64,000 nt of DNA from Protoeuglena noctilucae. Taxonomy: Eukaryota. Both the position numbers and the translations under genes were made by a program. Positions 11,494 to 58,595 of this stretch are shown here, one piece after another (position 1 is the first letter of the stretch; each line of letters starts with the position of its first letter). The notes below the pieces were generated by a model. The model did no database searches and had not been told where the DNA came from. It saw only the letters and a list, made by a program, of their open reading frames with translations. The stretch covers positions 868,001-932,000 of the forward strand of contig OY253680.1 in the NCBI GenBank assembly GCA_958009085.1, read 5' to 3'.

Positions 11494-14400
11494 ATGATGG
11501 CCGAGGCTGGCATGAGCGAGCGGAGCCTGACGCTCACTCTCGACCTTCCCGTCGCCCAGGCGACACCCTCGCCCCCTCTCCCCGACTTCGACCCCAAGGC
11601 ACGCGACCGCTATGAATGCGCGCGCGCGTGCGCCCGAACAGATGTATCGAAGCTACCGGAGTCACATGAGCGACTGACGTCACGAATATCCTCGTCCCTT
11701 CTCGCTGCAGAAGCCCTTTGCGTTTTCCGCGCTGCAGGCGCTCAGCATCGAGCTCAAGGCGGACCTGCGAGGTGAGAGTCGCGTGCGTCAAAGATAACAT
11801 AATCGATGGCAACCGGTAAACCTGGCCTGCGATGGCGCTCGCGGCGCAACGGGCATGCCCGCACTCGGTTGTCACACGCAGAGCCCAAATGGGACCTCTT
11901 GGCCTTCACCGGGGGCCCCGTGGGATGCGTGGACTGGTGCCCGCGTCGCTTCGGAGGCACGGCGTTCGTGGCAGTGGGGGCGAATCCCCCACGCGTGGCC
12001 AAGACACGGGGCGGCGTGCTGCTGTCAGGGCCTTGCGCCATTCAGGTGAGCCCCATTTGAAAGATGACTGGCCCGGGCTGCTGCTTCCCATGGCCCACAG
12101 AGTTATACCCACTTCATCCTCCACCCCCCACCCTCGCCGCCCCTCTAATCTTGCCCACAACGAACGCCTGCGACACTGCCCAGTCAGTTCTTACTCTCTC
12201 ATCCCTGTCATCGATGCTTAGATCTGGGCCCTGGCCGAGTCGATCGCCCAAGGCAACAATGCCGCGGGTGCCGTCCAGCGCGCGCCTGCCCGGCTGTTGT
12301 TGGCGACGACTCTGGCACACGAGGGGGGCAAGACGTGGGCTGTCAAATGGGAGCCGGGGGAGGGAGTGGCCGAGGTGGAGGATGGGCGAGTCAAGGTGAG
12401 GGATGGGGTGGGGGTGCGTGGAGAGTGGCTGGGTGGACAGATGAGCGATGCTAAGTCCGTGTCACTCACTACCAGTGGTCTGCTTACGAAGGCAACTGTG
12501 AGCTTGCCCGTGCTCCTATCATTACCCGGCAGAGACTTCTCATCTCCCGACGCGTTCCCGCAGTTGGGTCGGCTGGCCGCGGCGCTGGGCGACGGTCGGG
12601 TGGCGGTGGTGGACGTGTCTCTGCCTGAGGCGGACTGCCTGGCCCCGGCGTCGCTGAGTCAGGCCCAGGGGCGACGGGCGGAGGCGGAGGTGGTGTCCGA
12701 GTGCGTCATGCCCACCGGTGAGGGGCGGGGATGGTCATTGGATGGTGGGCTCGCGACAGTGGTCATGCATGGGTCAATGCAACCGCACCACCCAGCGTGC
12801 AGACGCGATCGAACGCATGCCAGCCACCACCCTCCTCACCCCCGCAGACGCAGCCACGTTGTTCAGTGGCGTGGACCCCAGCGTCGGCCCCGACGTGGCA
12901 TCCTGCATTGACTGGGCCAACGTCAATGCCGGTAGCGATGACCGAGCTGGTCGCGAGGGAGGGAACGCGAGGAAGGGCGGTGTATCGCGATCGGTGCTGG
13001 CGGTGGGGACGTTCGGGGGGTGCTGTCACTTGTTTGCATGGGAGGGCGGTCAGGGTGAGGGGGCGGGTACGGATGAAGCGAGGGGTGCAGGTGCAAGTGA
13101 AGCTGGCACGAGTGGTGCGGATGCGGGTGCGGGTCATGCAAGGGCGCCTCGCCTGCGCCGCGTGGCCACGTTGCCTGGCAAGGAGCGCCCCGTGGCGAGC
13201 GTGGAAATCGTGGGGACGAAGCGGGAGTGGGGATGGGGGGTCGATGTCGACGAGGGGGTGGCCGTGGGCGGGGAGCGGGACTTGGGCGGGGCTGGCAATG
13301 GGGCGGGAGCGGGCGTGCCCAGACCGCGTGCCGGCAACGCGTGGGTCGCGGACGTGACGGTGTGCGTGTGTGCGGGGACGGGCGGCATGGAGGTGTGGGA
13401 GGCGGGGGACCCCTTTCTGCCGCGCCTGGTGGTGGGGGAGGGGCGCATGAGGATCACGGCGGGGGCGCTGGTGCGCAAGCCATTCCTGTGCGCGGGTGAG
13501 GGACGAGGGCGGCGGTGGGGATGGCAGAGTGCGCCATTCTTTTCGATTTAATGCCCGTCACTCTCACCCCTTATTATGGAGCCATCTTCCCCATCTGTCC
13601 CACGCCCGCTCTCCTCCCTCCCCCCAGCCGTGTGCCGCGCGGCCTGGGGTCTCCGGCTGCACCCCCTCAACCCCCGCATCGTGGCCTCCCCCGACTTCTA
13701 CCTGGGCAAGTGCCCCCGGAGCCACCTGTACGAGCCCGGCTCCATGGGGGCGCTGATGGCGGTGGACGTGGCGGGGGGGACGTCCCTGGTGGCGACGGCG
13801 GGGGAGGACGGGGAGGTGGTGGCGCTGGATGCGTACGAGTGAGTGACGCGGATGGGGGGGTGGGACAGTGGTGGTTGCAGTGGTAGTGGTAGCGATGGTA
13901 GGAGTGGTGGTGAGTGGTACCCAGGCGCTCTCCCTGTGTCACATTGTCGCACCTCACAGCCAGCCATCCCACCCGCATCCCCAACCAGTGCACGTACCCC
14001 TCTCTCGTCCCATCCCAGGGCCATGCGCCCCGACAAGAAGCGCAAGTCCCGGGACTACAAGGGCGCGAGGGTGGTGGCGTCCTTCTACGTGAGCGGTCGG
14101 CACGTGGCGGTGGGGAGCGTGGGGAGGGGACTGGGGCTCACGACGGGGATCAAGCGGCAGGCGGGGGGCAAGGCGCAGGCGGGGTGAGGGAGAGGAGTGC
14201 TCGCGGGGGTGGCAGTGGGCGTAGGCGTGATGGCGTCGTGTAGCATGCGCTGGGGATGAGGGATTGACTCTCGTCTGCCCTCTTACATCATGCCCCGCAT
14301 GGCCCTTTGGCTCCCATCTGTACCCCACCGTCACCCACCCCGCCCTCTCATGACCCTGCAGTGCTGACGCCGTGGCGCTGCTGCCCGTGGACGACTGCTG

Positions 14401-14527
14401 CGTGAGCGTGGTGCGGTGGGGGCCCGGCAGCGCCACGGCCCCGCGGGTGCGGTGGCTGGCGGTCGGGTGCGGGTCGGGGCTGCTGCGGGTGCTGGAGGTG
14501 GGCGTCCCGGACAGCGCGGTGTGGTGA
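11494..14527 (+). CDS. WD40 protein resembling the TFIIIC subunit GTF3C2/Tfc6
   Basis: FTGGPVGCVDWCP...FVAVG, AIQ|IWAL, LAHEGGKTWAVKWEP, LGRLAAALGDGRVAV, WLAVGCGSGLLRV. Confidence 0.65.
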
Positions 14528-14942
14528 GGGGGATGCTGGCGGTGTGGAGATAGAAGCAGGCTGTCTGGTGGACGGACAGGGGGGAACATGGGGCAGCGGG
14601 GGGTATGGCAGCGGGGGAGAGAGCCCGCGAGTGTTCCCCTTGTCTGTTTCCGTTTCTGACTGGTTTGGCATTGCGACGCGTGAGCGTCCCCTTGAACCAG
14701 CGGCGACAGAAGACGATCTGGGAGCATTAACGAGGCTTTCGAGCCTGTGAAATCTGCATTTCGTCAGCGCGAGCGGTCGGGAAGGGCAGTTCAGCACAGT
14801 GGCGTTGGCGGCGAGGGCTCCGAGCGCCGCGCGCGAGTCCGGGCCTCGCTCCTGATCCGGTGAGTTTATTGATGCCTGCAGCCATCGTCGCATTGCCCCG
14901 ATCGCGTTCCGGCAGGCGCAGCAAGGGCCGCTTGCCGCAGTC

Positions 14943-17900
14943 ATGTCGGGCCCCGGGGCGGCGAGCGGGGAGGGCGGAGGCGTCCCAGCGCTGGTCGACG
15001 CGGATGATCTGGAGCTCGGAGCGCCTTTCAGTGGTGGCGACAGCGAGACGGTCGAGGTGCTGAGAGCGCGCTGGGTCTCGAAGGATCGGGATTTGGCGGT
15101 GAAGCGGGTGGACATGGACCTGCGCGGCACGGCTCCGAGGTCGAGGAGGGAAATGGTCCAAAGGAAGGCCGCGGATCTGGTGGAGATCGCAGCCGCGACG
15201 AGGAGTGCGACTGGCTTGTGTCCGTGAGTCGATGCTGCGGGTTGTAGGGCTGGGAACGAGATCGCCGATGATTAGTATAAACCTGGAACATGTCCTCGCT
15301 CTCCTGCAGGGTCCTGGGCGTGGCCGTCCGCGACCGGAGCCTGCTGGTGGTGATGCCGGTGTGCGCGCGTGGGTCGCTGGCGCAGCGCCTGGCAGAGGGG
15401 CCTGCCCTTTCGGCGCTGGAGGTAGTGGACGCGGCGGTGCAGGTGCTGGAGGGCCTGTGCGCCCTGCACGAGCGGGGCATCGTGCACGGCACGATCAAGC
15501 CCAGCAACGTGCTGGTGGACGACGAGGGGCGGCTCCTGCTGACAGACTACGGGCTGGCGGGGATAGCGGCGACAGCCGATGTCCAGGTGGGGCCGGGGCG
15601 CAGGAGGAGCGCTTGCCAAGCACTCTTGTCAACATCTGCCTGTGTGTCGTGGCAGATGCATACACTGGCAGTGCCCTCTCGGTCCGCCTCCGCAGCTGGA
15701 GCCAAGGAGGGTCGGCGAGGAAGCGAGGGTCGGCGCTGGGGTGTACGCGGCCCCGGAATGCAGGGGCGAGGGTCGACGTGTCGCGAGTCTCGCGTCGGAT
15801 GCGTACGCATTGGCAGCCGTGCTGTGTCACGCGGCGTCGGGTCAGGGGGCGCCCGCCGATGGCAGGCCCCCTGAAGTGCCGGATACGGTGCCGGAGCCAC
15901 TGCGGTCGGCGTTGCGGGGGGCGCTGCGTGAAGTGGCGGAGGAGAGGATGGGCGTGGCGGACATGCTGGTGGCCGCAAATGAGTCCAGGAGGTGAGTGCC
16001 TGGGTGGGCGAGGAGGAGGGCGTGGCACGCCAGGCGCATGTGGATGGGCTTGTGCGTGTGCAGCATCTCACTCCTGCGACGTGAATGCCCTCGCAGGGTG
16101 TTGCTGCAAACGTGCTGCATCTGCCGATGCGAGGAAGAGGAGGAGGCACTGACGGCGTGCTCGGCAGGGGCGCACCGCATCTGCAAAGAGTGCCTGGGGA
16201 GCCTGGTGGGGACGCTGGCGGACAATACGCGGGCACTGACTGCGGATGGGGACGTGGTGTGCAAAGAGAGCACGAAGCAAGAGTGCGGGGGCGCCTTTCG
16301 GTGCAACGAAATGGTGGAGGCGCTGGTGCAGACGCGGGCGGCAGCGGCGTGTGCGGGGTTTGTGCACGCCGTCCGAAGGCAAGCGTCGGCGGCCGCGGAC
16401 GCCAGGGCGGAGGCCCTGCGGGTGCGGGTGTTGGAGCTGGAGGCGGCAGGCATGGGTGCGGTGGAGGCGACCCTGGAAGCCCATCGGCGGGCGATGGAGG
16501 ATCTGCTGGTCGTGATTCGGTGCCCCGGTTGCCGACGCCCGGGGGACGTCGACGTCCAGAACTGCATGGCGCTATACTGCGCTCCGGATGTTGGCGGGTG
16601 CGGTAGCCACTTCTGCGCGTGGTGCATGGAGGCCTGCCCCGACTCGGACGCGGCCCATGCGCACGTGAGCGAATGCGGGCTGAACCCCAACCGACCGCAT
16701 CTGTACGCGTCAGAGAGGGACCATCAGGACAACGTCCGATGGGAGCAGCGGCTGCGGGTGGTGGCGCGTCTGCGGGACTACTTCACGAGGTGCCACATGG
16801 AGGTGGGGTGGGCGACTGAGTTCGCGACGCTGCCGGCGATCCGGGACCTGGGGTTGCGGTGGGAGGACGTGCGCGCTCACATGGACGGGGTGGTGGTGGT
16901 GCGGACCGGGGACGAGCTGGTGGAGGCGGCCAAGAGGGGCGGGGTGGTGGAGCTGGGCGGGGGCGAGGTGGTGCTGAGGAGGGCGGTGCGCGTGCGGGGC
17001 ACGAGCGTGACGGTGCGCAACGGGACGGTGCGGGTAATAGACGAGGAGATAGTGAACGACGGGTACGGCGTTCAAGTGGAGATGGGCGGGAGGTTGACGG
17101 TCGAAAATGTTCGGGTGGTGGGCACAGGGCTGAGTTGCGAAGACGGCGGGCAGGCAGAGCTTCAGGGCGTGGAGATCGCCGACTGCAGAGAAAACGGCGT
17201 GTTCTGCCGTGACCAAGGATCTAAGATCGTGGTGCAGGGAGGGCGCATTATGGGGTCCAAGGACTCAGACGGGGTGGCATGCGAAGAGGGCGGGCAGGTG
17301 GAGCTGCGGGGCGTGGAGATTGCTGACTGCAGAGAAAATGGCGTCGTGTGCACCGGCCACGGGTCCACGGTCGTGGTGCAGGGGGGGCGCATCACGGGGT
17401 CCAAGGACGGGGCCGGGGTGGCATGTGGACCGTGGGCAGGCAGAGGTGCGGGGCGTGGAGATTGCCGACTGCGAACGCAGTGGCGTGCTCTGCACCGGCC
17501 ACGGGTCCACGGTCGTGGTGCAGGGGGGGCGCATCACGGGGTCCAAGGGCGGGGCCGGGGTGGCATGCCTCGACGGTGGCCATGCGGAGGTGCGGGACGT
17601 GGAGATCGCCGACTGCAATGAGAATGGCGTGTCCTCCCGTGGCCAGGGGTCCAACGTCGTGGTGCAAGGGGGGCGCATCACGGGGTCGGTGGGTGAAAAT
17701 GGGGTGGCTTGTGAGGACGGTGGGCATGCAGAGGTCCGGGGCGTGGAGATCGCCAACAGCAATGACAGCGGCGTGTTCTGCGATGGCCCAGGGTCCAAGG
17801 TCGTGGTGCAGGGGGGTCGCATCACGGGGTCCGTGGAGCACAACGGGGTGGCGTGTCATGAGGGGGGGCAGGCGGAGGTGCGGGGCGTGGAGATCGCCGA

Positions 17901-18345
17901 CTGCAAGGAGTGTGGCGTGTTTTGCACTGACCAGGGGTCCAAGGTCGTGGTGCAGGGGGGGCGCATTACGGGGTCCAAGAACTTTGACGGGGTAGAATGC
18001 CAATTTGGCGGGCAGGTGGAGGTGCGGGACGTGCAGATCAGTGACTGCCGTCGGTACGGCTTGTCCAGCGACGGTCGTGGCAGCAGGATTAGCGGGGCCA
18101 ACATTCAGGTCGCCAGATGCCCCAAAGCGGTGTTTGTGACCAGGGGGGGGGAAGGTAGATGTGGGCCTCTGACGACGGGTGGGTGCTTGTTGGCAGGCGG
18201 ACAGGACTGGTCCACCCATGATCCTTCCAAAGCACCAATGCGCTGCAGCGTAACGGGGGAGAGTGCGATGGAGTGTGGGTACGGTGGAGTGAGTAGCCTG
18301 TCCGCCAACGGTTGCTTCGAATTGAATTTGAAGTGTAAGATGTAA
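14943..18345 (+). CDS. Pseudokinase + RING + IBR/Rcat-type Zn finger + right-handed beta-helix protein; 2-nt frameshift near 17428 (pseudogene, allele or assembly error)
   Basis: [73 protein letters not shown]; repeats GVEIADC..GV.C...[10 protein letters not shown]. Exons ~14943-15223, 15310-15586, 15698-15992, 16097-18345. Confidence 0.8.
17140..18060 (+). repeat. Seven tandem 144-nt (48-aa) beta-helix repeats
   Basis: The gtg(g/c)agat anchor falls at 17169, 17313, 17455, 17599, 17743, 17887 and 18031; all spacings are 144 except one of 142. Confidence 0.95.
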
Positions 18346-18427
18346 CGATAGGCAGCTGATGCAACTGCCAGCACTTGCATGTGTGTCACCTAAGAGGCTT
18401 CGGAGCGCTATCAAGTCCAGTCATCCT

Positions 18428-19638
18428 TCACTGTCGCATTGGTGGGCCAACCTCCACGTCCTTGCCCTTCACCCCACCGCCTCCCCTAGCCACGTCCACC
18501 GATGCGCCTTCCACAACACCCGCCTCGCTCGCAGCACTTGACGCTGCCGCATATGCCGACACCCCGCCCTCGACCAGCAGCCACGCGCCCATGAAGACGC
18601 CGTACACGAACTTGAGCGAAGGCAAATGGAATGGGCTTGGACGGTCACTGAAACAGAACACAATGTCAGCAACGCCCACCAGGATGGCTGCACGGCGTCG
18701 ATGCTGTCAATCCCAGCGCTCACCAGAGTGGCTCCATGGTGTCGATTTCGGCGCGGAAGCGGGAGACGTACGTGGTGATGCCCAGCACCACGGTGACGGA
18801 GGAGGAGAGGAGCAGAGCCATGGCGAGGGTTTGGAAGAGGACGAGGAACTGCGGGAGTGGGGCAGCGAGGGATGTGTGAATGGGCAGGATGGGAGGTTGC
18901 AGATGCGCAGGCAAGACGGGACGTGATGTGCAGGAATGGCTGCGCGTGCGAGAACACAGGCATGCCAATGAGTGCTTCGGGTGCCCAGGCCCTGCACCCC
19001 AGGTGGCCTGGCAGGCGATGCTCACCATCGAGTACCACGCAGGCTTTCGTTTCTTGAGCACGTGCATGAAGGGGCCCAGGAAGAGCCCCGTCGCGACGAT
19101 GAGGCACATGAGCGAGAAGGTCAGCCATCCAAAGCCCTTGTGCACATCTGCAGGAGTGGGTAGCTCATCTCATCGCAACCATCCTGCGCAGGTCATTCTC
19201 CTATCCGCGGCGTGCGCTGCGACATGCGACACCCCTGCTCACCTCCCAGTGACCCCTGCAACGCCTTGTACGCTGTGGCGCTCGCGGGACCGCTGTCAGC
19301 ACGGACGGCGACGGTGATCCCGGCCACGGCGAGAGCGAAGGACCCTAGGATGCACACGATGTGAGCCCACAGCCACGGCCTGGGCACCGCTTGGTAGACG
19401 CGCTTGGGCAAGGGCATCATTCTCTCGCGATGCCGGACGAGGAGCAGCGCGGCGGGGAGGAGGACGACGAAACCCGTGACCATCAGCGATCTGTGAGTCC
19501 AGAACTGATCGCTCGTGGAGGCCGCCAGGTGCTGGGTGGCGCCTGCGAGACAAATGGTCCCGGGACCCTCGCACTGCTGTCGCTGGGCCCGCACAAGCCG
19601 CTTGTCCACGCTGCCTCGCCTCTGTCTGTAACGTCCAT
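18428..19638 (-). CDS. Cytochrome b561-domain-like membrane protein
   Basis: Transmembrane helices with WTHRSLM, WLWAHIVC and VHKGFGW, His spacing typical of b561 domains. Confidence 0.6.
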
Positions 19639-28431: not shown

Positions 28432-31400
28432 TCACTCGGACTCGGCCCTCTCCTCGCCCACCCGGGGCCTCTTGCCCTGCGGCGTCCCAGCCCCATCCGC
28501 CCTCGCCCGCTTGGTGCCCTTCCCCTTCGCAGGCGTCGCGCCGTCCGCCTCCCCCGCCGCCCCCTCCGTCACCGGCCCCTCCGCCTCGCCACCCCCGCAC
28601 CCGCTGACCGTCACCCCCCTCCGCACGATGCTGCTCGTGCTCTGATCGTCGGCACGCATGGCCACGCCCCCGCAATCAGCAATCACCACGCCCCGCAGCT
28701 CCGCCTTCCCGCCCTTCCAGCAGTGCACGGCGTCGCCCTTGGCCCCCGCCACGCCCCCGCTCACCATCTTGAGCATCGCCCCGCTCTGCACCCCCACCCC
28801 TGCACCCCTCAGCCACACGTGCTCCAGCGTCACGTGCCGGCCCCGGGCGGGCGCGTGCACCATCCACTCCTCCAGCCCCTCCGCAGCCACGAGCGTGCCG
28901 TTTGACAGCGTGATCTTGCCCCGCGAGACGCGCAGCGTTGACCGCAGCGTCACTTCCGCACCACCCAGGTCAGCCTCAAAGCCTTTTGCGTCTGCCGCCA
29001 ACACCGACTCGACCAGGAGAGCCTCGGTCCAGGGCCCAGAAAACGCCTCGTCCTGCACGCGTGTACGCGCGGCACATGTCAAGCTGGGAGGCGTGCATGG
29101 GCACGGCCGGGGTGCATACACACGGGCGGTATCTACATCCAGTTGCCGTCGCATTTCACCTTGCAGAACGACAGCATGACGTCCCTCTTGGCCAGGATGC
29201 CGCCCTTCTTCTGCTCGACGCCCGGCCCGACGCACTCCACCACCTCCACGCCCTCCATCGTCAGCGCCCCCTTGTCCCCGCACGCCGCCCCGCCCCACAC
29301 GCACCGCGCGATGCGGCCCCCGCGCACCGTAGCCACGCTCTTGTCGTGCGACACCCACACCCCGCGGCCCCCGCACCCGTCCACGTCGCAGTGCTCCACC
29401 TTGACCACGCCACCCCCCACGCACAGCACCCCGCTGCCGCGGCACCGCATCAAGCGTACGTTGCGCACCGCGGCCTCGCCTTCCGCTGGCTTGCCCCCCT
29501 CCACGTGCACTCCCGTGCGGCAGTCCTCGATCGCCGCCCCCTCCACCTCGACCTTCGCTCCCGGCCCTGAGAACACACCAGGTCCCTCTGCCGCCGACAC
29601 CGTCCCGCCCCGCACCAGCACTGCCGACCCCTCGCCCTCCCCGAACACCCCGCCAACCTTGCACTCTGAAATCGCGACGCCGTCCGCCTCCACCTTCCCG
29701 CCCTTCGCGCACCGCACGCCGTGGCCGGTAGCCTTGGCGATGCGTCCATTCCGGACGCTCGCGCTCGCATTACTTCCCTCCACGACTACCCCGTCCCCGC
29801 ACCCCTCGATCGCCGCCCCCTCCACCTCCGCCTTGCCTCCCACGCATGCCACCCCAGCCTCCTTGCAGCCCTCGATGCGACCCCCGCGCACCATCGCCTG
29901 CGCGCCCGACCGCGCCCGCACCCCCGCACCCACGCACGATGCCACGGCGGTGTCATGGAGCTCCACGGCGCCGCTCTGCATCTCCACCCCGTCCTGGCGG
30001 CACTCGTCGATGCGCCCGCCCCGCACCACCAGCCTCCCGCCGCCCGTTGCCACGATGCCTGACTCGCATTCGCGGATCTTGACACCCTCAACCGTCACAC
30101 TGCCGGCGGTGAACTGCAGTCCTTCCCCGGAGCACCCGGCCACCGTGCAGTCACGCACCGTGGCCCCGCCCACCGTCCCAATCGACATCCCCGGACCCCA
30201 TGCGCCCGTCACGGATGCCCTCTCCACCTCCACCCTCTCTGCGCCCTGGCATGTGATGCCCCCGCGCTCCACCCCACCCCCCTCCATCCGCAGCGACGCA
30301 CGGTTGAGTTCCATCCCCCCGCCGCGCAGCCACAGGTCGACGAAGGTGACACGCGTGCCCTTACCGTCCGCCAGAACCAGGGGCCCGCGCAGACCCTTTT
30401 CGGCCGTGAGAGTGCCGTTCCGCACGGTCACCCTCCCCCCCGTCACGCACAGCCCCATGCGCATCGCCACCTCCTCTCCACCCAAGTCGACCTCGAGAAA
30501 ACCCTCCGGGCCCAGAGCCTGGGCAGCCTCCCACAGCACAGGGCCTGTCCACGGCCCCGCAAAGGCGACATCCTGCACGAAGAAGGAACGAGATGTAAAG
30601 GTGAAGTCACGGTGCTTCGCAAGCATCGGCCACCAGCGCCAGCGAGCTTGCGGTATCCATATCACCCCCGCACCTTGCAGCCCTGGACCTGGACGTCTTT
30701 CTTAGTCACCACGCCGCCACGCCTCTCGCTGACGCCGGCCCCCCCGTACCCGGACACCTGCAGCCTCTCGGCCGTAACTCTGGCCCCGTCGCTGCACAGC
30801 AGGCCCCCGAAGGCGCAGTCAGAAACCCGACCGCCCCGCACCGTCGCCCGGCTGCTCGTGTGCGACACCCACAAGCCGTGGCCCTTGCACCCCTCGATGT
30901 CCGCATCGTCGGCATCCACGGCGCCCCCCTGGACGCACGGGATGCCGCTGCCGGAGCACAGCTGCACCGCCACCCGCCGTAGGGTGACCTCCCCGCCCTT
31001 CGTGCACAAAACTCCTGTCCCCGGGCAACCCCGAACGACGACCCCATCGCTCAGGTCCACCTGAGCGCCACCCGATACGTCCACGCCGGTGCCGCACAGC
31101 TCCACGACGAGGCCCTTGGTCCCCTCGACGCGGCCCTTGTCAGCAGCGACCACGCCGGCGTGGCCGCACTCGGCGACCTTGCCGCCGTGAACGGCAGCCT
31201 TGGACCCGGCTCCCTCGACCCGCAGTCCCTCTCTGCACTGCGACACGTGCACCCCCTCCACCTCCGCTCTGCCGCCCTCGCTGACCAGCACGGCAGCCCC
31301 GCTCTTGCAGTTGACCACACTGCCCCCCCGTAGCGTCAGGCACGCCGACTCTCCTTGCGCAGTTACTCCGTCCCAGTTGCACCCACCCACGGTCGCCCCG

Positions 31401-33720
31401 TCCACAAAGACGTTGTCAGTCTCGCACAGCAGCCCGCCTTTCCCGCAGTCCGACATCGTGACCGAGCGCAGGACCACCTTCCCGCTTGCCTTGCCCTCCT
31501 CGCCGCCCAGGATGTGAACTCCGTAAGCATTTCGGATGTCTGTGACCCGCAGACCCTCCAGCTGCGCTCCCCCAACGTCCTTCAGGCTCACCCCTCCCTC
31601 CCGGCACTCTGCAAAGGTCCCCTCACGCACCACCAGGCGCGTCTCAGGGCCCTCCGCCGCCAGCGCCACGCCCTGGCACCCGTTAACCGTCGCCGAGGTC
31701 ACCTCGCATGCCAGGGCGCCGCCGAGCCTCACGCCGTCGGCCTTGCATCCCATGATGCGGCACCCTCGGATGACGACGTTGCCGGGGCTGCCCTCTCCCT
31801 CGCCACTGAGGCGCACTCCGCACTCAGCCGCATCGTGGATCTCCACCCTGTCCAGATGTACTGTTCCGCAGCGATTGGAGAACACACCATTAGTGGCGGC
31901 ACCGATGATCGCCCCACGGGTCATCCGGATGGACGCCCTGTTGCCTGCCTGCAGCCCTTTTCCGTGCAGCCGGACGCTCGATAGCTGCAGCTCCGTCCCA
32001 CTGCCGTATGCGAACAGCAGGTACTTTCCTCCCATGTCATCAACGGCTTTGAGAGTCCCGTTGCGAATGGTGAGCCTCTTGAGCCCGCCCACCGACAATG
32101 GCGTCCTGACCCGCACGGTGCCGCCGTGGAGGTCGATCGTTGCCTCGTTTTCACATGCCGCAGCGATGGCCTCGGTCATCAGTGCCTCGGTCCACGGACC
32201 CTGGAAGGACCGGCTCTGCGGACTCGAAGCATCACAGCATGGTCGCGAGCTGACGTGCATGAGGTCAGTGCAGCAATCCTGCCTAAACCGTAACGCAGAG
32301 CATCCCATGCATCACCACAGGCAGACACGGTTCCAAACCCCACGTAGCTAAACCACCAAAACGGCAGCTATCAGTTACACACCTGGCACCCGCCAACGAC
32401 GACGTCCTTGTGCTTGAGCAGCCCCCCGTCCCTCTCCTCCAGGGCGACTCCGAAGCACTCGAGGACCTCCGCGCCATCCACCTCGGCCGTTGCGCTCCAG
32501 CTGCACAACAGCCCTGCCATCCCGCAGCGCCGGAGGCGTGCGCCACGCACGGCGGCCTGGCTGCCTTTGCCGCTGACCCACAGGCCTTGGCCCGCGCAGT
32601 CAGCCACATGAAGGTGCTCCGCCGTCAGTCGGGCGCCGAGGATGCACAGCACACCGCTTCCGGCGCACCCCGCAACCATGAGCCCACCCAGCGTCGCCTC
32701 GCTATTCTCGCCCTCCACCCACAGCCCTGTCCGCCCGCACGCAGTGACTTCCGTCCCCGGCCCTTCCACACGGAGCTTACCCCCGTCTGTGCATCGGAAG
32801 CCACTCTTTTTGCATGCTGTGACCCGGACTCGCTTAACTTGAACGACCCCATTCCAGGAGGACTCCACCCCAGAGTCGCATGCGACAACCTCCAGGTCCT
32901 CCAGAGAGATGGCGGCGTTGGAGCTGACCACACCACTGCCCGCGCATTCCAGAGTCCTGCCGCCGCGGATGCTCAACACCGTGTGGTTGACGGATTGGTT
33001 GCCCTCACCCTCATCCTCTTGGGCCACCGACGCGTATATGCCGTAACCTCGGCAGTTCCTGATATCGATGCCCTCCACCTCCACCTGTGCCGCCTCCGCC
33101 GGCCCTTGGCACTCGACCGACAAACCCTCGAAGCACCCGGAGGTTGTGACGCCCGACAGCACCATCTTGCTCAGGTCGCGGCCAGTCTTCACTGAAATGC
33201 CCGTGCCATGGGTCGCAGCGACCTCGACGCCGGTCAGCTGGACGGACGCGGCGTCCTCGCAGAGCATGCCGACGCCGCAAGCCTGAGAGACGCCCCCGCC
33301 CTCCATGTTCAGGGTTGCCCTCTCGCGCACCTCGACACCCGCCCCTCGCAGCCGCACCATCTCGAGCTCGACGAAAGTCTTCTCGCCTTGGATCACCATG
33401 GCTTGCGCGACTCCGTATCCTGCCACGAGCGTGCCGTTGCGCAGGCTGACCCGGCCTTGCAGGGGCAGTGGGGCGCCGAGCAGGACCTCGCTGCCGTCGA
33501 GGTCGATCCGCGCTCCGTCCTTCTCCGCGGACTGCAGCGCCAGTCGCAGTCGCTCCTCCGTCCATGGCTGCGCCTGCGGCGGGGGCTGGATCTGGGGCAC
33601 GCGCCGGTTGGGCTCAGCGGTTGGCATTTTGCCGCTACCGCGCTCTACGATGCTCGCGGCTCCGTCTGCGCCTGCTCGCCCCGCCGCGCCCCACCTAATC
33701 GACCATGACGTCATCAACGA
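28432..33720 (-). CDS. Large protein of four tandem right-handed beta-helix modules, one per exon, with a basic NLS-like tail
   Basis: Phase-0 introns 32382-32216, 30673-30573 and 29159-29053 join four ORFs in frame. Each module begins (F.G)PWT followed by (I/V/A)DL.G..V....L.......NGTL. 5' end uncertain. Confidence 0.8.
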
Positions 33721-34119
33721 CAACCACGGAGGTTTTCTTCTCCTCGGACGGCTCCATCGCTGCGAAATCGCTTCCGAGGTGCACCTGCATGCCGCGGGGC
33801 GATGGGGCGCGTTACAGGAGGTTCATATCCTCAAGCTGCACCGCTCATTATCACCAACTGAATCACAGCAAATTGCATTAGACCAACGATTCGCGCGGGG
33901 CTCACACCTTGAGGCGCTGTGGCGACTGAGCGATCAAGTGCGTTTCCGACAGAGAGCAGCGCGACTGGATCGAGATGTTCGACAAATACTCAGGGAAAGC
34001 GGCCGTGGACCTCTTCATGCGGATGGCGCAGTCGGACAGGCCCACCCGTCTGACTAGGGCAGAGGACATCTAAATCAAAACGCTCATTAAGGCGTACCCT
34101 CGGCGCAATGCATCCATGT

Positions 34120-37098
34120 CTAGCGCGCCCCGACCGCGACCTTGCTCGCGGCCCCCTGCGCGATGCGGTCCGCAAACTCCCCGTAGCTGTACTCGACCAC
34201 CTTGCCGAGCGCCACCCCGGACACGTAGTTGCCCCCGAGCACGACCCCCTCGAGCCCCGCCTCGTCCAGGGCGCGCCGGGCGGCCGCCAGCGTCTCGTCG
34301 TGGCCCACGTTGAACTGCGGGCGCCAAATTGACGCGGCCCATTCGTCGATACGTGGCCAACTTCCCACCCTGCATGGTTATTTCAATCACACGATGCCTG
34401 AGTTAGCGCACTGCGCCCGCTGCTCGCCTGGGGGATGGCCCTGGGCCACACACGGATGCCGACCTTGATGGCCGGGGGCGCGTCCTCCTTGATGAGCATC
34501 TGCCTCACGTCCCTGTCCACCTGCGCCAGGATCTGGTCCTCGGTCTGGTCGACGATGGCCCGGTTGGTCGCACCGCCGATGTAGCTGAGGTGACGAGAGG
34601 GGGCGGGGGGTGAGAATCGCTGGGAGAGCACCCCACTACCTCAGCTCCCCACTCTCTCATCACCACAGCAGCAGCAGCAGCACGCATGACCGCACCCTCT
34701 CTGCACTGCCCCGTCACCCCTCCTCACCACAGCAGCAGCATGCAGCACCCCACCCTCCCTGCATGGCGCACCACCCCTCCCTCACCACAGCAGCAGCATC
34801 ATCTCCTCCTCCGCCCTCCCCGGGAAGAGAGACGAGGAGTAGATGGTCCCCAGCGTGACGATGCCCTGTGAGCGAGGGTGCAGCTGGCCGAACCCAGGCA
34901 CGGCCCCGCTGGCGTCCCGCCGGTCGTCACGCACGGCGCTCTTGGGGTACGCCACCGTCACGGCAGCCACGGGGGGATAGTCTGCGAGGGAAGGAGACGG
35001 GTGGGTGATGGGCCACAGTCACGGCAGTCAAGAGAGGAGGGTGTGCCGCCTAGTACTAAGGACGGGGATGACGATGACACGGGACTGTTCCCATGTTCCA
35101 GCCCAGCCCCTCATGCCACACGGGTGCATGGCCTGGTCTCACCAAACGCCCTCAGCGCCTCGGCTGCCTTGGGTGCCAGAGACTCCACGACGCTCGCCAC
35201 GGCGTACGAAGGAGTGGTCATGGCCACACGGCGAGCCTTGACCGTCTGCTTGCCGTCAGGGGTGCTGCAGAGAACACGGGGAACTGTGTATGCTGCTGAA
35301 CATGGCACAGCAAGCGCTGACAGGCTTTAACGACGGTCGATGCACTGCCATCAATCGCCCACATCCCTGCTCGCCATGGCCTCACCTGTAGGTCAGCTCG
35401 AACGTGCCGTCGGCCGCCTTGGCCAGGCTCTGCAGCGTCCACCCCGTGCGGATCTGCTCCTTCATCGTGCCCGCCAGAGCCTTGGGCAGCATCTGCAGGC
35501 CCTTGCTGCAAGGGAAAGGCGAGGGGGGGTAGCACATCAAATGGACAGACCTCCTAGCCCCTTCCGTCAACTCTCTCCCAAACACGCCCCACTCCCTCAC
35601 CTGCCCCCACACCCATATGTGCCCCGCGCACCCTCACCAGAACGATCCCACCGTCTGCCCCTTGGGCTTGGGCGGCAGGCGCGGGTCCCGGGGCGGCGGC
35701 GGGTTCTTCTTTCTGTCCTGAATGAGCTTGATGGCCCCACCGACCAGGGAGCCCCCCTCGGCCTCGAGGGAGTGGATGCGCCCAAACGCGGCCTTCATGG
35801 AGAGCTTGGACGGGTCCCCCGCGTACACCCCGGAGCAGAAGGGCTCGATGAGGCGGTAGAACACCTCGTCGCCCAGGTTGCGCTGCGGGGGACACGGGTG
35901 CAGGGCATTGAGCAGGGCAGGCACGAGATGGTGGGGTGCGTGACCATAGCAAGGGCTGCGTGACCAGCACACTGTCAACACATGCCCAATTCCTCACAAC
36001 ACACTCAACCTCACGTTTCCCATCACTTCACGTCTCCCTTCTCCCACCCAGCCCCCGCAGCCACATCCCATCACATCCCATCACGCATCTACATCCCAAC
36101 CCATCAGGCATCATTGCTCACCCGGATGAACTGCTCCACCGTCTCCTCGAACGATGGCATCGGCCCCGCCTTGTAGAGACCCACGGCGCCCAGCCCCGCC
36201 CGGATCTTGCCCCACAGGGACAGCAGGTCGAACGTGAGCACGTCGGGGCCCGAGGGCGTGGCGCGGAGCTTCTTCTCCCAGAAAACGAAGCGGGGGGCCT
36301 TGGGGTCGCCCAGCACCAAGTCCTTCTCGATGCCTGCAGTTGGTGCGAAAGAAGGGGTCAGACTGCTCCAGGTGGGGATGCGCACGGCCTGGGGAGCAGT
36401 AGGTGGGCGACGAGTGTGTTAGGGCGTGGCACGCGCACCGGCGTCGACGGCGATCTGCAGCATGGAGTCGTTGGGCTGGAAAGAGTTGGGGCCCTCCTCC
36501 CAGACGTAGTGCCGTCCCTCGACGTCGCCCTCCATGGAAGTGATGTTGCCGCCCACGCGGTCGCGCGCCTCCGTGATGAGGAAGGAGGTGCCCTTGTGGC
36601 GGGTCTGAAGGGCCTGACCGGCGCAGAGGCCGGAAAGGCCGCCTCCGACGATCACCACATCCACGGAAGTCGCCGCGGCGCGCGCCCGCTGCGGAGGGGC
36701 GGGAGGGCAAGGGAGTGTCTCCAGTAGCGCGCGCGGCTCCCGGGATCGCGGGCAAGCAAGCTAAGCATTGCGAGGCAAACATCGACATCGATGCGCGCAG
36801 TCCAGGCGCGAAAGAATCGGCGCGCTTCGCGCACGCTCGGATGAGATAAGTCGGCTGCAGTGGGCGATGCAGTGCCGCCGGGAGGCTCCGCATCGACGCG
36901 CGGGAGGGGCGCGAGCCGCGATGCAAACGTCAAAGGGCACACAGAACTCGCGGGTGCTCCATCCGCGGCCGCATCGACCAAGTCAGAGCAGAGATACACG
37001 GCGACCCCTCGGGCAGTCACCAGGCTCCGGGATCGCAGCGCCCGCCCCCTGGCAGGGCAGCGCGTCAGCGACGACGACTGGGAGGACGCGGAGATCAT
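34120..37098 (-). CDS. PPOX: Plastid protoporphyrinogen oxidase
   Basis: [74 protein letters not shown]; transit-peptide-like first exon at 37098. Confidence 0.95.
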
Positions 37099-52300: not shown

Positions 52301-54238
52301 GCATTGTGGACAGCCCAGGGGGTAGTAGGGGCACTGCGCATGCGGAGAGAGCGGTGGGGTCGAGAGGGGCAGGAGCGGTGCCGGTGTCGCTGCCAGCCAC
52401 GCCCGTGAGCCAACACGGCGTGGCGCACGATGGGCCTGGCAATGGGAGCGTGCAGGGCAATGGGAGCATGGATGGCAAGTCCATCCACAGATCCATCGAC
52501 AGGTCGATTGACAGGTCGATGGATAGACCAACACCGAGTAGGCTGGACGTCCTTGCTCCCTCGCTGACCCCCGCATTGACGGCGTCCCGCGAAGACGCCC
52601 CGCGGCTGGGTGGGGCGGTGGGGGCCGCCACGCCTCAGATGGCCCTGGGTGGTGGCACCCCACATGCCACGAGCGCTGGGAATGGGAGCAGTGGGGGTGG
52701 CACTGTGGGTGGCGGTGGTGTGGGTGGGAGTGCTGTGGGTGGCAGTGCGGTGGGTGGTAGCGCTATCGGTGGCAGTTGTGGGGGTGGCAGTGGTGTGGGT
52801 GGTAGCGCTGGGCTCAGCGGTGCCCTTGGCGGTGCGGTGGGTTCCATAGCCCCCGTCTCTTCCTCAGCAGTGGCAGTGGCAGTGGCGAGCAGCCCCGCTC
52901 CTAAGCTGGGCGTGTCGGAAGAGCCATTGGTGGCGTTTGTGCTGCGGGAGTCGGGCAGAGGGGTGAGGCATGGGGAAGGGTGGGATGAAAACATGGAGTG
53001 ATTTGTTGTGACGTGATGTGACCTGTTGCCACGCCACAGCGCATGTGCTGCAGTTGTCTCAACACACCACGCATCGCAGTGCAGTGCAGCAGTTGCCTCG
53101 CCCCTTCGCCCACCCCCCGCAGTCGATCCGCAGCGCCGGCACTGCCGGCACTGCCTTGGATATCGGATCGAATCCGGCCTCGTCCCTCCCGCGACCGGCC
53201 CTGGACGCCACCCTGCGCCCGCCCCCGGGGTCACCAGAGCGGTCGGGGGATGGGGAGGGGAGGGGCATGGGGAATGGGGAGGGGAGGGGCTGGGATGATG
53301 GGAATGGGGAAGGGAGGGGCTGGGGGTCGCAGCGGAGCGTGGGACAGCCCCACAACGCTGCCGAGAGTCGAAGCCCTGTTGCGAGAAGGCCTGTGGGTAC
53401 TGGGCCAATAGCAGGGCCAACAGCCGGGGTGTCAACAGCGAGGCCAATAGCACGGGCAACAGCTGGGCCAACAGCGGTGGGGCTGTCAAGGAGGGATGTC
53501 GACGCTTCCCTCCTCGCGTTGCCTCGGATGGCGGTGCCCCGGGTGTCCCTGGGGGTGGAGGAATCGGACGGGTTCCATTACCGCCGATTAACGGGGATAG
53601 GGCAGGTGCCCTTCGAGGGGAAGCACACGGTGTTCGTCGACACGCCAGAGAAGACGCCAGAGAGGGGTGTCGCGGGGGCGGTGGGGAGGGCAGACGCGGC
53701 TGCTGCGCTGTTGGTGGAAGTCGATTCGATGCGGGGAAAGTGCGACAGCGACGGGGGTGGGAGCGTGGAGCTGGTGGTGGATGGTGGGGCACAGAGCGCA
53801 CCACAGTCGGGGCGTGCGGGGACGGGTGCGAGGGGTGCGAGTAGGGGCAGGGGGACAGGCAGGGGCGGGTCTGGGCCTGGCAAGCACGGGGGTGGGCGGG
53901 GCGGGTCTGGGTCCCAGTTGCGTGAAATGCAGCGGCGTCGGCAGCGGTTGCGGGCGCGTCGGCAGGCGCAGGAGAGCGACAGCGAGTGGGGCAGCGAGGG
54001 GGGCGGCGGCAGTGACAGCGATGGGGAGTACGTGCCATCGACAGCCAGCCGGGGGCAACGGGTGCAGAAGCGGGGGCGCGAGAGCGGTGACAGCGATGGG
54101 GAGTACGTGCCATCGACCGCCAGGGGCAGGCAGCGGGTGCAGAAGCGGGACCGCGGCGGTGAGGGGGCGTGGGATGCGGAGAGGAGAGGCGGGGGGCGGC
54201 GCGCGGTTGCGGTGGTGGGGGGGCGTGGCGACACATGA
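46338..54238 (+). CDS. Ulp2/SENP-like SUMO protease (peptidase C48) with an N-terminal Cys-rich motif and a long low-complexity C-terminus
   Basis: DLDYLLDEEFIHDQ, HFFDPHFF, KWTKGVDIFSK, PINSALHWSL (His), LDSL (Asp), RQTNYYDCGLFV (Gln, Cys). Whether 46338-47200 and the far C-terminal exons belong to the same gene is inferred. Confidence 0.8.
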
Positions 54239-54405
54239 GGGAGGAGTGGTGTGGCTCTGTGGGTGGGTGCGTGTCGTGGGTCTGGTTTGTGCGGCGAGCA
54301 TCGGTGCTAGGTTAGAACAGAGCTGAGTGGTCTGCGGAGATGAGAGCACATGCATGGCGTATGTTGAGTCATTGTTGAACAAAGCGCTAGCACTCTCATA
54401 TGCCT

Positions 54406-54722
54406 GTCTCATATGCCTGGGGTGGCAGCCCCAGGCAAGCTGTATGCTGAGCGTCTCCCAGTCACGCGGCACATATCGACACATAGTGGCACACAGTCAA
54501 GCGACCCGTTGCTTCAACTCTACTAGTATGCACGTGTACCCTTGCACCGTGCCTGAGGGTGGATATCGATGGCTGCATAGTACTAACAACGCCATTGCAG
54601 TCGGGCATGCATGTGGTAGGGGCCCACCCATGCCTTACAGGGCGGTGGAGCACGCGTGGACCCAGCAACGACGCCCGCCCCGCCACACAGCCGCGAATCC
54701 GACGCGGGGAGGGTGGGGCTCA
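54406..54722 (+). repeat. Direct repeat, copy 1 (homologous to 58638-58934)
   Basis: Shared blocks gtctcat.tgcctggggtggcagcccc.ggcaagctgt, cgacccgttgcttcaactcta, attgcagtcgggcatgcatg, cgccacacagccgcgaatccga, ggagggtggggctca. Confidence 0.9.
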
Positions 54723-55103
54723 GTACTGTCATGGGACATGTTGACATGCGCAGCGCTACATGCAAAGCGAACCCGTCATACCGACGCCCATGGCCAGCCC
54801 ATCAGCTGACCTCGCAGCTGTTTTTGCCTCGTGCCCGGCTCGGGTCACTGCTTGTCGTCGGGCACGGTGCCGGGAGTCCTCTGTGTCTTCTTACTCTGCG
54901 AACGCAGCACGGGCGAGGGGCTCACGTGGATGTCGACATGTCATCAGATCACAGCACGTTACCCAGGAGCATTCTCTCGCAATCAGCCAGCATCTCTCAA
55001 CCGCACTGACAAGCCCACTCACGGGTGCGCCTTGCAGGGGCGTCCGTGGCGGCGAAGTCATGACGGCCGGCTGCAGCGCCTGCATGCGCAGGGGTGTGGA
55101 GAG

Positions 55104-57843: not shown

Positions 57844-58595
57844 CCTGGCAAGCACCTCCGAGGAGCTCGCGGATTACGCGCGTGCCCGAGAGCCAGCACA
57901 ATACGTGGCCCGAAATGCAGGGAGAGCACCTGGACTTTTGTGCCTGTGATTTGCAAAGCGTAGGTTTGTCAAATGCGTCTTATGGTTAAAATGCCCCGTA
58001 ACACCACGGGGCCGCTGGGCAAGGCGGGGTCAACAGGAGGCAGGTTAGCTGAAGGCTCTGAGCGCTGCAGGCCCTTCCAGCCCCTATCCGTGGCGTAGCC
58101 ATCGACAAACCCACCCGTAAAGCAAGTGGAGCGGGCGTTTCGGCATAAATTTACAGCGGCAGGACGCAGGAAGCTTGCAAAGTGTCGACGAACTCTCACA
58201 GCGCGAACTAGTGGCACGAGCCGAAGGTACCGCGCGGCTTGAGCGAAACATTTCCCTCGCTTGTCCCGGTGGAGCCGATACAACCTCTGTAGCGGCCATG
58301 AGCTGCCAAACAGAGAACACACCCAAAACGACCGACCAAAACGACCAAATCCACCGCCTCCCTGCACTCCGCGTGCAAAATAGCCTCTTTTATAGCTGGA
58401 CCTAACCTTGTTTGGCAGCCCTGCTATTCTCTCTTCCAACCTAAAACGACCTGCCAACCTTCTCAGCCGCGAGGGTGGATGTACCTGCTAATGACCAGGT
58501 CTTGCAAATAGAGGCTGAATCTGGGCCTACTGGCAGAAACGCACCACGGCAGAAACACTAGCGAGGGCGCCAGAGAGGGGTGCATGTCGAGGGGA

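Follow-up and report, generated by a model that had tools for sequence, protein, structure and literature searches.

The window analysed here is a stretch of 64,000 nucleotides from Protoeuglena noctilucae (GenBank assembly GCA_958009085.1, contig OY253680.1, positions 868,001 to 932,000 of the forward strand). Positions 14943-18345 of its plus strand are filled, according to the gene model and RNA contigs, by a spliced eukaryotic gene encoding a protein kinase domain that lacks the catalytic Asp, a RING finger, a long helix, a second zinc finger resembling the catalytic Rcat finger of RING-between-RING (RBR) ubiquitin ligases, and a right-handed parallel beta-helix built from tandem repeats. 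An earlier note, made from the letters of this DNA, had described the same order of parts and proposed a variable-sensor ubiquitin ligase, possibly antiviral. The RING1-helix-Rcat module of this gene is a conserved, diversified multigene protist family, often fused to kinases, and the window copy carries a 2-bp deletion within its beta-helix repeats.

Gene structure, transcript and kinase domain

A sampled-word search found the stretch 14700-18600 in 13 public runs of 4 studies, with the metatranscriptome runs X7-X10 containing 59-74% of its sampled words. Window positions 14000-19500 were compared with contigs from the RNA runs X7 and X8 and from the DNA-type runs X1 and X5. The coding sequence starts with the ATG at 14943 and reaches a TAA at 18343-18345, the stop of the frame downstream of the deletion. 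In the by-eye gene model it is interrupted by introns at 15224-15309, 15587-15695 and 15992-16096, all of which are GT..AG and join their exons in frame; the RNA contigs show four GT..AG introns, namely these three and one in the 5' untranslated region (UTR). Contigs with these joints come from X7 and X8, whereas X1 and X5 yielded 0 of them. The 5' UTR exon (14722-14859, where 14722 is the end of X7 contig 17 and not a mapped transcription start) is followed by an intron of 81 nt (14860-14940), whose joint (14858>14940, cut +1) is present in one contig each of X7 and X8. Coding exon 1 (14943-15223) holds the start codon and a divergent kinase N-lobe, exon 2 (15310-15586) the catalytic core of the kinase with its HGTIKPSN and DYG motifs, and exon 3 (15696-15991; 67% identical to the start of the relative P0002) the kinase C-lobe with APE and the helices that follow it. 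Exon 4 (16097-18345), traced by Pfam matches and RNA contigs, holds the RING1 finger, the helix, the Rcat-like finger, a helical extension and the beta-helix.

Joints 15223>15310 and 15989>16095 have 255 letters supporting either side in the RNA contigs. X7 contig 17 connects the 5' UTR exon with exons 1 and 2, and X7 contig 18 (1133 nt, 0 mismatches) splices exon 3 to exon 4 and extends as far as 16930; an X8 contig of 1072 nt has the same splice. A single RNA contig thus carries the kinase C-lobe, both zinc fingers and the beginning of the beta-helix, which speaks against separate transcripts and bears out the single spliced gene of the earlier note. Over exon 4 the RNA contigs cover 16095-16930, 16929-17401, 17589-17838 and 17980-18345.

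At the 3' end, an X7 contig stops at 18345, the last base of the TAA, with 5 unplaced letters, and RNA depth is zero from 18416; either the 3' UTR is very short or it is absent from the RNA assembly. At the other end, an apparent last exon of an upstream gene (14361-14527, plus strand, ending in a TGA at 14525-14527 and covered by RNA of X7 and X8) precedes the 5' UTR exon by about 200 bp. A scan of 18200-18700 for promoters and terminators, made with bacterial models that are not relevant to a eukaryote, returned nothing, and an Rfam scan of the window returned no RNA family.

The kinase is recognised through exon 2, which matches Pfam Pkinase (PF00069) with E=2.3e-16 over profile positions 62-148. 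As the earlier note had read it, the catalytic loop (15485-15508) is HGTIKPSN, without the Asp of HRD-type loops, and the Gly loop is degenerate (GAPFSGGDS in place of G-x-G-x-x-G); the AVK Lys, DYG and APE are all present. Exon 1 gave no Pfam match at E<=1 and no BLAST match to the relatives. Of the 150 relatives that match the zinc-finger module best, 23 have H-x-D-x-K-x-x-N and 0 have HGT, and the kinases closest to that of the window (31-35% identity by BLAST) are themselves fused to the module (P0123, P0087, P0070 and P0064) and have loops of the form H[AC]D[IV]KP.N. This proximity to fused H-x-D kinases indicates that the fusion of kinase and module is old and that the loss of the Asp is derived in the window copy. 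The term pseudokinase thus appears justified at the level of motifs, and the domain may still bind nucleotide.

The RING1-helix-Rcat module and its family

The first finger (16113-16286, plus strand) has the pattern C-x2-C-x11-C-x4-H-x2-C-x2-C-x22-C-x7-C, formed by C6, C9, C21, H26, C29, C32, C55 and C63 in the translation of 16098-16898, and conforms to a family consensus of C-x2-C...C-x4-5-H-x2-C-x2-C...C-x3-7-C. When the family profile was compared with PDB sequences, the best match was parkin (5caw_A, E=3e-8; 28.4 bits for its RING1), followed by HOIL-1, Cullin-9, ARIH1 and ARIH2, with the RING1 of HOIL-1 matched at E=7.5e-4. Two AlphaFold models were made, one of the two-finger module (predicted local distance difference test, pLDDT, 86.0), the other of exon 4 residues 1-443 (pLDDT 89.7). 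Residues 1-100 superpose on residues 233-329 of parkin, its RING1, with a Z-score of 7.5 and a root-mean-square deviation of 2.5 over 91 residues. By profile and predicted fold, what the earlier note called a C3HC4-like RING is a RING1 of RBR type, and recruitment of a ubiquitin-conjugating enzyme (E2) is predicted for it.

In PMC3940038, RBR ligases are defined by the series RING1-BRcat-Rcat, in which Rcat has the catalytic Cys and BRcat has the same fold without it. The central BRcat/IBR is missing from the module in the window. Its position is taken by a single long helix (16329-16511, plus strand), supported by the models, the family alignment and hhalign, that runs uninterrupted over residues 78-137 in the first AlphaFold model and 82-138 in the second, and the stretch of about 70 residues between the fingers contains no conserved Cys or His in a family alignment of 50 rows. 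The helical linker and the missing IBR of the earlier note both hold up.

The second finger (16521-16676, plus strand) reads CPGC-x10-C-MALY-C-x6-C-x4-C-x2-C...H-x-H-x3-C. Conservation was followed in alignments of 35 and 136 sequences, in which C142, P143, C145, C156, C161, C168, C173, C176, H187, H189 and C193 reach at least 90% conservation or do not vary at all; the Cys to spare, the candidate catalytic C156 (16563-16565), and all eight zinc ligands are kept in at least 90% of the sequences of both. The family consensus of this finger is rCP.C...f.dF.gC.Al.C......Cg..FCawCl..c.....aH.HV..C..np, followed by a conserved helical tail. Scored with the family profile, the finger matches the Rcat of parkin with 17.7 bits and its IBR with 7.4 bits. 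Alignment of the family profile by hhalign with a canonical RBR protein (P0164, with RWD, RING1, an IBR at Pfam positions 333-391 and later a GCNKMTC finger, its Rcat) gave a probability of 95.3% and E=2.1e-8 over 190 columns, in which the two RING1 fingers coincide, the second finger pairs with the GCNKMTC finger so that the spare Cys meets the Cys of that finger, and the IBR of P0164 faces the inter-finger helix. In a second canonical RBR protein (P0097), the query finger maps to 1531-1619, behind the IBR (1467-1523) and overlapping an IBR_1 match (1546-1582).

The finger is followed by a helical extension (16713-16883, plus strand; helices at residues 206-262 in the models) that is conserved across the family. 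Residues 118-257 of the model superpose on RNF216 649-772, its Rcat and following helix, with a Z-score of 4.6, and the module superposes on the RNF216 transthiolation complex (8eb0_A) with a Z-score of 9.0 over 191 residues; in such comparisons a Z-score under 8, as for the two partial superpositions, can mean merely a common arrangement. Of 118 chains ranked by Foldseek, 50 reach a Z-score of at least 5, and RBR ligases make up most of these; among the rest are other RING domains (IRF2BP2, AO7 and Slx1) and BusR, which is unrelated. On the combined evidence of alignments and models, the module is an RBR core minus BRcat/IBR, in which the second finger corresponds to Rcat with a Cys at the catalytic position, as the earlier note suggested, and thioester chemistry is predicted.

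The main mechanistic rival is a plain RING mechanism, in which an ordinary RING ubiquitin ligase (E3) transfers ubiquitin directly, the second finger is structural (BRcat-like or ubiquitin-binding) and the extra Cys is a zinc ligand or structural residue. Parkin, HHARI and HOIP have C-x-H at the catalytic Cys, and the His of this motif is replaced by Ala both in the window (C-M-A-L-Y-C) and in the family consensus (C.AL.C). Two conserved His residues (H187 and H189) leave the assignment of zinc ligands ambiguous, the window finger falls below every Pfam threshold, and BRcat and Rcat share one common fold, according to PMC3940038. The plain RING mechanism nevertheless has to accommodate nine conserved Cys/His residues beyond what the pairing of CP.C needs, at a spacing collinear with Rcat, as well as the higher score against parkin Rcat than against its IBR, the placing by hhalign of the spare Cys, kept in at least 90% of 136 sequences, on the Cys of GCNKMTC, and a RING1 that is of RBR type by profile and fold; it is judged unlikely.

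The extent of the family was assessed with a full HMMER scan of 1.84 billion representatives (50% identity) with residues 1-267 of exon 4 as the query. The two-finger module matched 545 representatives at E<=1e-3, of which 27 reach E<=1e-10 and 3 reach E<=1e-30, a number of matches that rules out a chance module and, with the many domain fusions, a single-copy housekeeping gene, the alternative that the earlier note had allowed for. Both fingers are covered in 50 of the best 151 matching proteins. A word-indexed protein search retrieved 3 proteins and its profile version 6, and a metagenome contig scan found one locus of 1525 bp (L001), with a finger 42% identical, that was not used further. 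The 2025 copy of Pfam holds no family of its own for the module. A language-model atlas places the module closest to groups of hypothetical proteins for which the few members on record come from haptophytes; RBR ligases come next. Among the members listed for protein clusters of the family, the only names were "serine/threonine protein kinase" and "hypothetical protein". Full-text literature, with PMC3940038 and PMC4327156 available in part and subscription literature outside the scope, yielded no description of a natural IBR-less RBR protein or of a haptophyte kinase-RBR fusion.

Partner domains were surveyed in two Pfam scans. Among 29 longer matches, Pkinase was found in 13, Beta_helix in 2, Ank in 2, WD40 in 2 (one of them also with a kinase), leucine-rich repeats (LRR) with a kinase in 1, helicases in 2 and a canonical RBR arrangement in 1. 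The 136 matches of up to 859 residues contained Pkinase (17), IBR_1 (11), IBR (3), LRR (3), UBA (3), WD40 (2) and Ank (2); 14 matches were omitted here by length, of which 12 are among the 29 and two (P0030 and P0151) were left unscanned. Since many matches are fragments of eukaryotic genes called as bacterial-style open reading frames (ORFs), these shares are lower bounds. The layouts include LRR-kinase-module (P0064), WD40-kinase-module (P0070), Ank-module (P0014 and P0022), module-WD40 (P0048) and module-beta-helix (P0005 and P0006), and among the matches scanned the beta-helix fusions are confined to the few closest relatives.

Close relatives (E<=1e-28) are few, namely P0002, P0003, P0004, P0005/P0154 and P0006. 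P0002, which is 72% identical and was found on 12 contigs, has the kinase C-lobe, RING1, Rcat and beta-helix cap, P0003 has Rcat, tail and beta-helix, and in P0005/P0154 and P0006 a single ORF encodes the module together with an uninterrupted beta-helix. P0002 ends in the alternative reading of the window letters at about 16941, and this implies that 1 nt has been lost from a G run where its beta-helix begins. Such a 1-nt deletion was seen in an X5 marine-metagenome contig (16860-17000) at a depth of 14.2 of 28.4, together with C>G at 16907 and 16931. With the frameshift of the window gene, at least two copies thus have their beta-helix out of frame and others are intact.

The beta-helix repeats, the deletion and the neighbouring genes

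The C-terminal domain (16890-18160, plus strand) is a right-handed parallel beta-helix consisting of an N-cap and double-coil repeats of 48 residues. Pfam Beta_helix (PF13229) matches both of its halves (E=3.6e-11 and 2.5e-18), and in the second AlphaFold model its strands form a regular solenoid with pLDDT mostly above 90, in agreement with the repeat beta-helix of the earlier note. In the DNA the repeats appear as tandem 144-bp units (17130-18135, plus strand), seven in a manual register in which each 48-residue unit makes two coils; Tandem Repeats Finder reports a 144-bp unit in 6.3 copies over 17136-18039 with 79% matches. The neighbours found by Foldseek (GH87 glucanase, the AlgG/AlgE4 epimerases and pectate lyases; best E=1.6e-2) are generic beta-helix enzymes, and with E-values this weak they point to no ligand.

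Repeat unit 3 (17418-17559) measures 142 nt in place of 144 and places a 2-bp deletion at 17427-17428 (plus strand), since two placeholder bases inserted at about 17428 bring back the repeat pattern. The upstream frame ends at a premature stop at 17619-17621, and the encoded product has 792 residues, the last 64 of them out of frame, compared with about 1034 without the deletion; it retains the beta-helix cap and about 2.3 repeat units. The truncated product would therefore comprise the kinase, RING1, helix and Rcat with a short beta-helix stub. An X1 contig (17378-17520) agrees with the window letter for letter at a depth of 275, similar to the 276-457 of the flanking single-copy sequence, and no reported indel falls on the site in any of the four runs, so the deletion is present in reads, with the limit that X1 may be the assembly's own source data. 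The frameshift that the earlier note had suspected is thereby retained and narrowed to a deletion of two bases.

A different possibility is that the frameshift is unreal at the level of the protein, through an assembly or consensus error, +1 ribosomal frameshifting or correction of the RNA, and that the full product of about 1034 residues is made. The frame past the deletion is open for 304 codons as far as 18345 with its repeat pattern kept, and RNA cover reaches the same position. The site (TGT GGA CCG) is not known as a shift-prone motif, and the X1 contig and the lack of a reported indel in the four runs make this possibility very improbable.

A transcribed pseudogene is a serious possibility for this locus, although we put it at clearly less than an even chance. 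On this view the locus would be a paralogue in decay, its product functionless, and the intact P0005/P0154 and P0006 would be the working copies. Besides the 2-bp deletion and the stop that follows it 64 codons on, the catalytic Asp is gone here while 23 related kinases retain it, the kinase N-lobe is too divergent for any match, and a second copy has a frameshift too, the 1-nt deletion implied for P0002 and seen in the X5 contig. Set against this, splicing is correct at all four introns, and two samples yielded RNA contigs that do not differ from the window; the kinase-RING1-Rcat part upstream of the deletion is an intact frame of 728 codons with all zinc ligands; and truncated forms without a beta-helix could function, most family members having none. 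Additionally, the pairwise ratio of non-synonymous to synonymous substitution (dN/dS, or omega) is 0.40-0.57 among the repeats after the deletion and 0.35 for the two units before it. The repeats past the deletion still look like coding sequence, which indicates that the deletion is recent.

Over all 15 pairs of six repeat units omega is 0.31-0.99, giving no signal of diversifying selection, and this pattern offers no support for the "variable sensor" of the earlier note. Variation among the repeats is concentrated in 11 of the 48 columns, at turn positions as in any solenoid, where omega is about 0.8; these columns were picked for their variability, and repeats within one gene are a poor substrate for a test of selection. 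If the protein were an innate-immune or antiviral sensor, the beta-helix (or LRR, WD40 and Ank in the relatives) would bind a pathogen ligand, with the pseudokinase as switch or decoy and ubiquitylation as the response. Such a sensor would fit a family in which a single effector module is combined with exchangeable repeat domains and kinases, the frameshifts by which close paralogues differ, and the presence among the atlas look-alikes of a Nucleocytoviricota cluster (score 0.90), which is a lead only. The gene, on the other hand, has no NTPase, death-fold or TIR domain by Pfam, its repeats show no excess of non-synonymous change, and layouts of repeats with an E3 are common in housekeeping ligases too, and an immune role is considered improbable.

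Over the repeats (17312-18047) the summed depth of X1 contigs is 1555-2213, which is not a copy number, compared with 276-457 in the flanks, and contigs of the DNA runs have many loose ends and repeat mis-joins there; this suggests that the genome contains many near-identical beta-helix repeats elsewhere. A second and much larger beta-helix gene is present in the window at 29133-33630 on the minus strand, with three long ORFs matching Beta_helix (E=2.7e-36, 1.4e-30 and 4.5e-15); its start (MPTAEPNRR...) has an N-cap similar to that of the kinase-RING gene, and it has no RING, Rcat or kinase. At 34100-36800 (minus strand), exon-sized ORFs of the flavin amine-oxidase family match Amino_oxidase (E=6e-13 and 2.7e-6) and possibly belong to a protoporphyrinogen-oxidase-like gene. 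An ankyrin-repeat ORF lies at 58993-60294 (minus strand; Ank_2, E=2.6e-18), and it and the amine-oxidase gene look like ordinary nuclear neighbours. The G+C content is 62-71% over most of the window, and falls to 0.47-0.56 in an island at 54001-58000 (0.62-0.71 elsewhere in the window), where four ORFs and an edge ORF at 52635-54311 (minus strand) gave no Pfam match.

Proposed mechanism and known systems

The reading we slightly favour is that this nuclear gene of a GC-rich marine alga encodes a multidomain ubiquitin ligase of an undescribed type, derived from RBR ligases, lacking the IBR and acting by transthiolation. RING1 would recruit the E2~ubiquitin conjugate, and ubiquitin would be passed as a thioester to the near-invariant, non-zinc Cys156 of the Rcat-like finger and then to a substrate, along a route like that of parkin, HHARI or HOIP. 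A rigid helix, about 57-60 residues long, would substitute for BRcat/IBR and set the geometry, and Ala would stand in for the His two residues past the catalytic Cys. The kinase, which comes from an active-looking subfamily habitually fused to the module, would without its Asp (HGT) serve as a scaffold, regulator or binding module, and the C-terminal beta-helix would be the likely part for recognition of a substrate or ligand. The window copy itself is a truncated, and perhaps decaying, member of a birth-and-death family.

A number of observations weigh against this reading. Replacement of the His at Cys+2 and the missing BRcat mean that transthiolation may work differently here, and BRcat participates in ubiquitin binding in the solved RBR complexes. 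Foldseek returned nothing at E<=1e-3 for either model (best 7.5e-3 and 5.5e-3), the fingers of the window gave no Pfam IBR or RING match at E<=1, and most matches of the relatives to IBR_1, IBR_2 or Rcat_RNF216 lie close to the curated cut-offs or under them; the range of the partial Z-scores belongs here as well. The proposed mechanism is, for every member of the RING1-helix-Rcat family, a prediction from sequences and models. For the gene model, the joint between exons 2 and 3 (15583>15693) is weaker than the others, with a shorter side of only 27 letters, and an unspliced X8 contig (15557-15722, depth 4.6) reads from exon 2 through the whole of intron 2 into exon 3, which could be a retained intron, pre-mRNA or carry-over of DNA. 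At the deletion the mRNA is uncovered, as the RNA contigs listed stop at 17401 and resume at 17589, a break in cover that does not itself argue for absence, and the possible dependence of X1 on the assembly applies to the same site. Finally, a truncated copy with a pseudokinase may be without any function.

A broader and more tentative proposal, possible but short of probable, is that the module defines a distinct class of BRcat-free, thioester-forming ligases that has multiplied in marine protists, haptophytes among them, as the output part of signalling or defence receptors built from kinases and repeats (LRR, WD40, Ank or beta-helix), with the window gene as a recently truncated member with a beta-helix sensor. 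If this is true, BRcat is dispensable for RBR-type catalysis, and these algae own a large repertoire of receptor-kinase-E3 proteins without counterpart in model organisms. According to PMC3940038, the characterised RBR ligases all have the RING1-BRcat-Rcat triad, and the role of BRcat is still debated. A conserved and expressed family with RING1, an Rcat-like finger and a helix in place of BRcat would be a natural test of what BRcat is for, and its size and frequent fusion to kinases point to an undescribed layer of kinase-ubiquitin signalling in ecologically important marine algae. The interest lies mainly in this family and less in the window copy, with its dead kinase, truncated beta-helix and possible status as a pseudogene in the making.

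Several known systems share parts of this architecture. The fold of the C-terminal domain is also that of bacterial and viral beta-helix enzymes (GH87 glucanase, AlgG/AlgE4, pectate lyases and tailspikes), from which the domain in the window differs in being cytosolic, Cys-rich and highly regular with a period of 48 residues, and to which its matches are weak (12% identity at the best E-value, 1.6e-2). ROCO/LRRK proteins and NLR receptors combine repeats, a kinase or kinase-like domain and an effector in one polypeptide, as the window gene does, and relatives of the gene carry LRR or WD40 beside the kinase. A Pfam scan of the five coding segments at E<=1 found no STAND or ROC-COR NTPase family, so that the analogy with NLR and ROCO receptors drawn in the earlier note is restricted to layout, and the output domain differs in being a predicted ubiquitin ligase.

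F-box proteins of the FBXO11/FBXO10 type are substrate receptors of cullin-RING ligases that have an F-box, no catalytic finger and a CASH domain (a PbH1 beta-helix), the latter presumed to be the substrate-recognition part of a ubiquitin-ligase component. Like them, the window gene places a right-handed beta-helix of PbH1 type in a component of a predicted ubiquitin ligase; unlike them, it has the beta-helix fused in cis to the ligase core, and the Pfam scan of its coding segments at E<=1 found no F-box. The RING-Cys-relay ligase MYCBP2/PHR1 has a RING, no IBR and then a zinc-binding domain with a catalytic cysteine, which is the same order of RING and catalytic-Cys domain without an IBR as in the window module. 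The second domain of the window module differs from that of MYCBP2/PHR1 in being a finger of Rcat/IBR fold with one candidate Cys, and not a tandem-cysteine domain, to which neither the PDB profile search nor the structure comparisons of the module gave a match.

The closest likeness is to the RBR ligases (parkin, HHARI/ARIH1, ARIH2, HOIP, HOIL-1, RNF216 and RNF14-like proteins), with which the module shares the type of RING1 and a collinear Rcat with a spare Cys. Helices flank the fingers in both, and the helix after the Rcat-like finger resembles that of RNF216. Unlike these ligases, the window module has a helix of about 57-60 residues and no BRcat/IBR, has Ala for His at Cys+2, continues into a conserved H-x-H-V-x2-C tail and a helical C-terminal extension, and is habitually fused to protein kinases.

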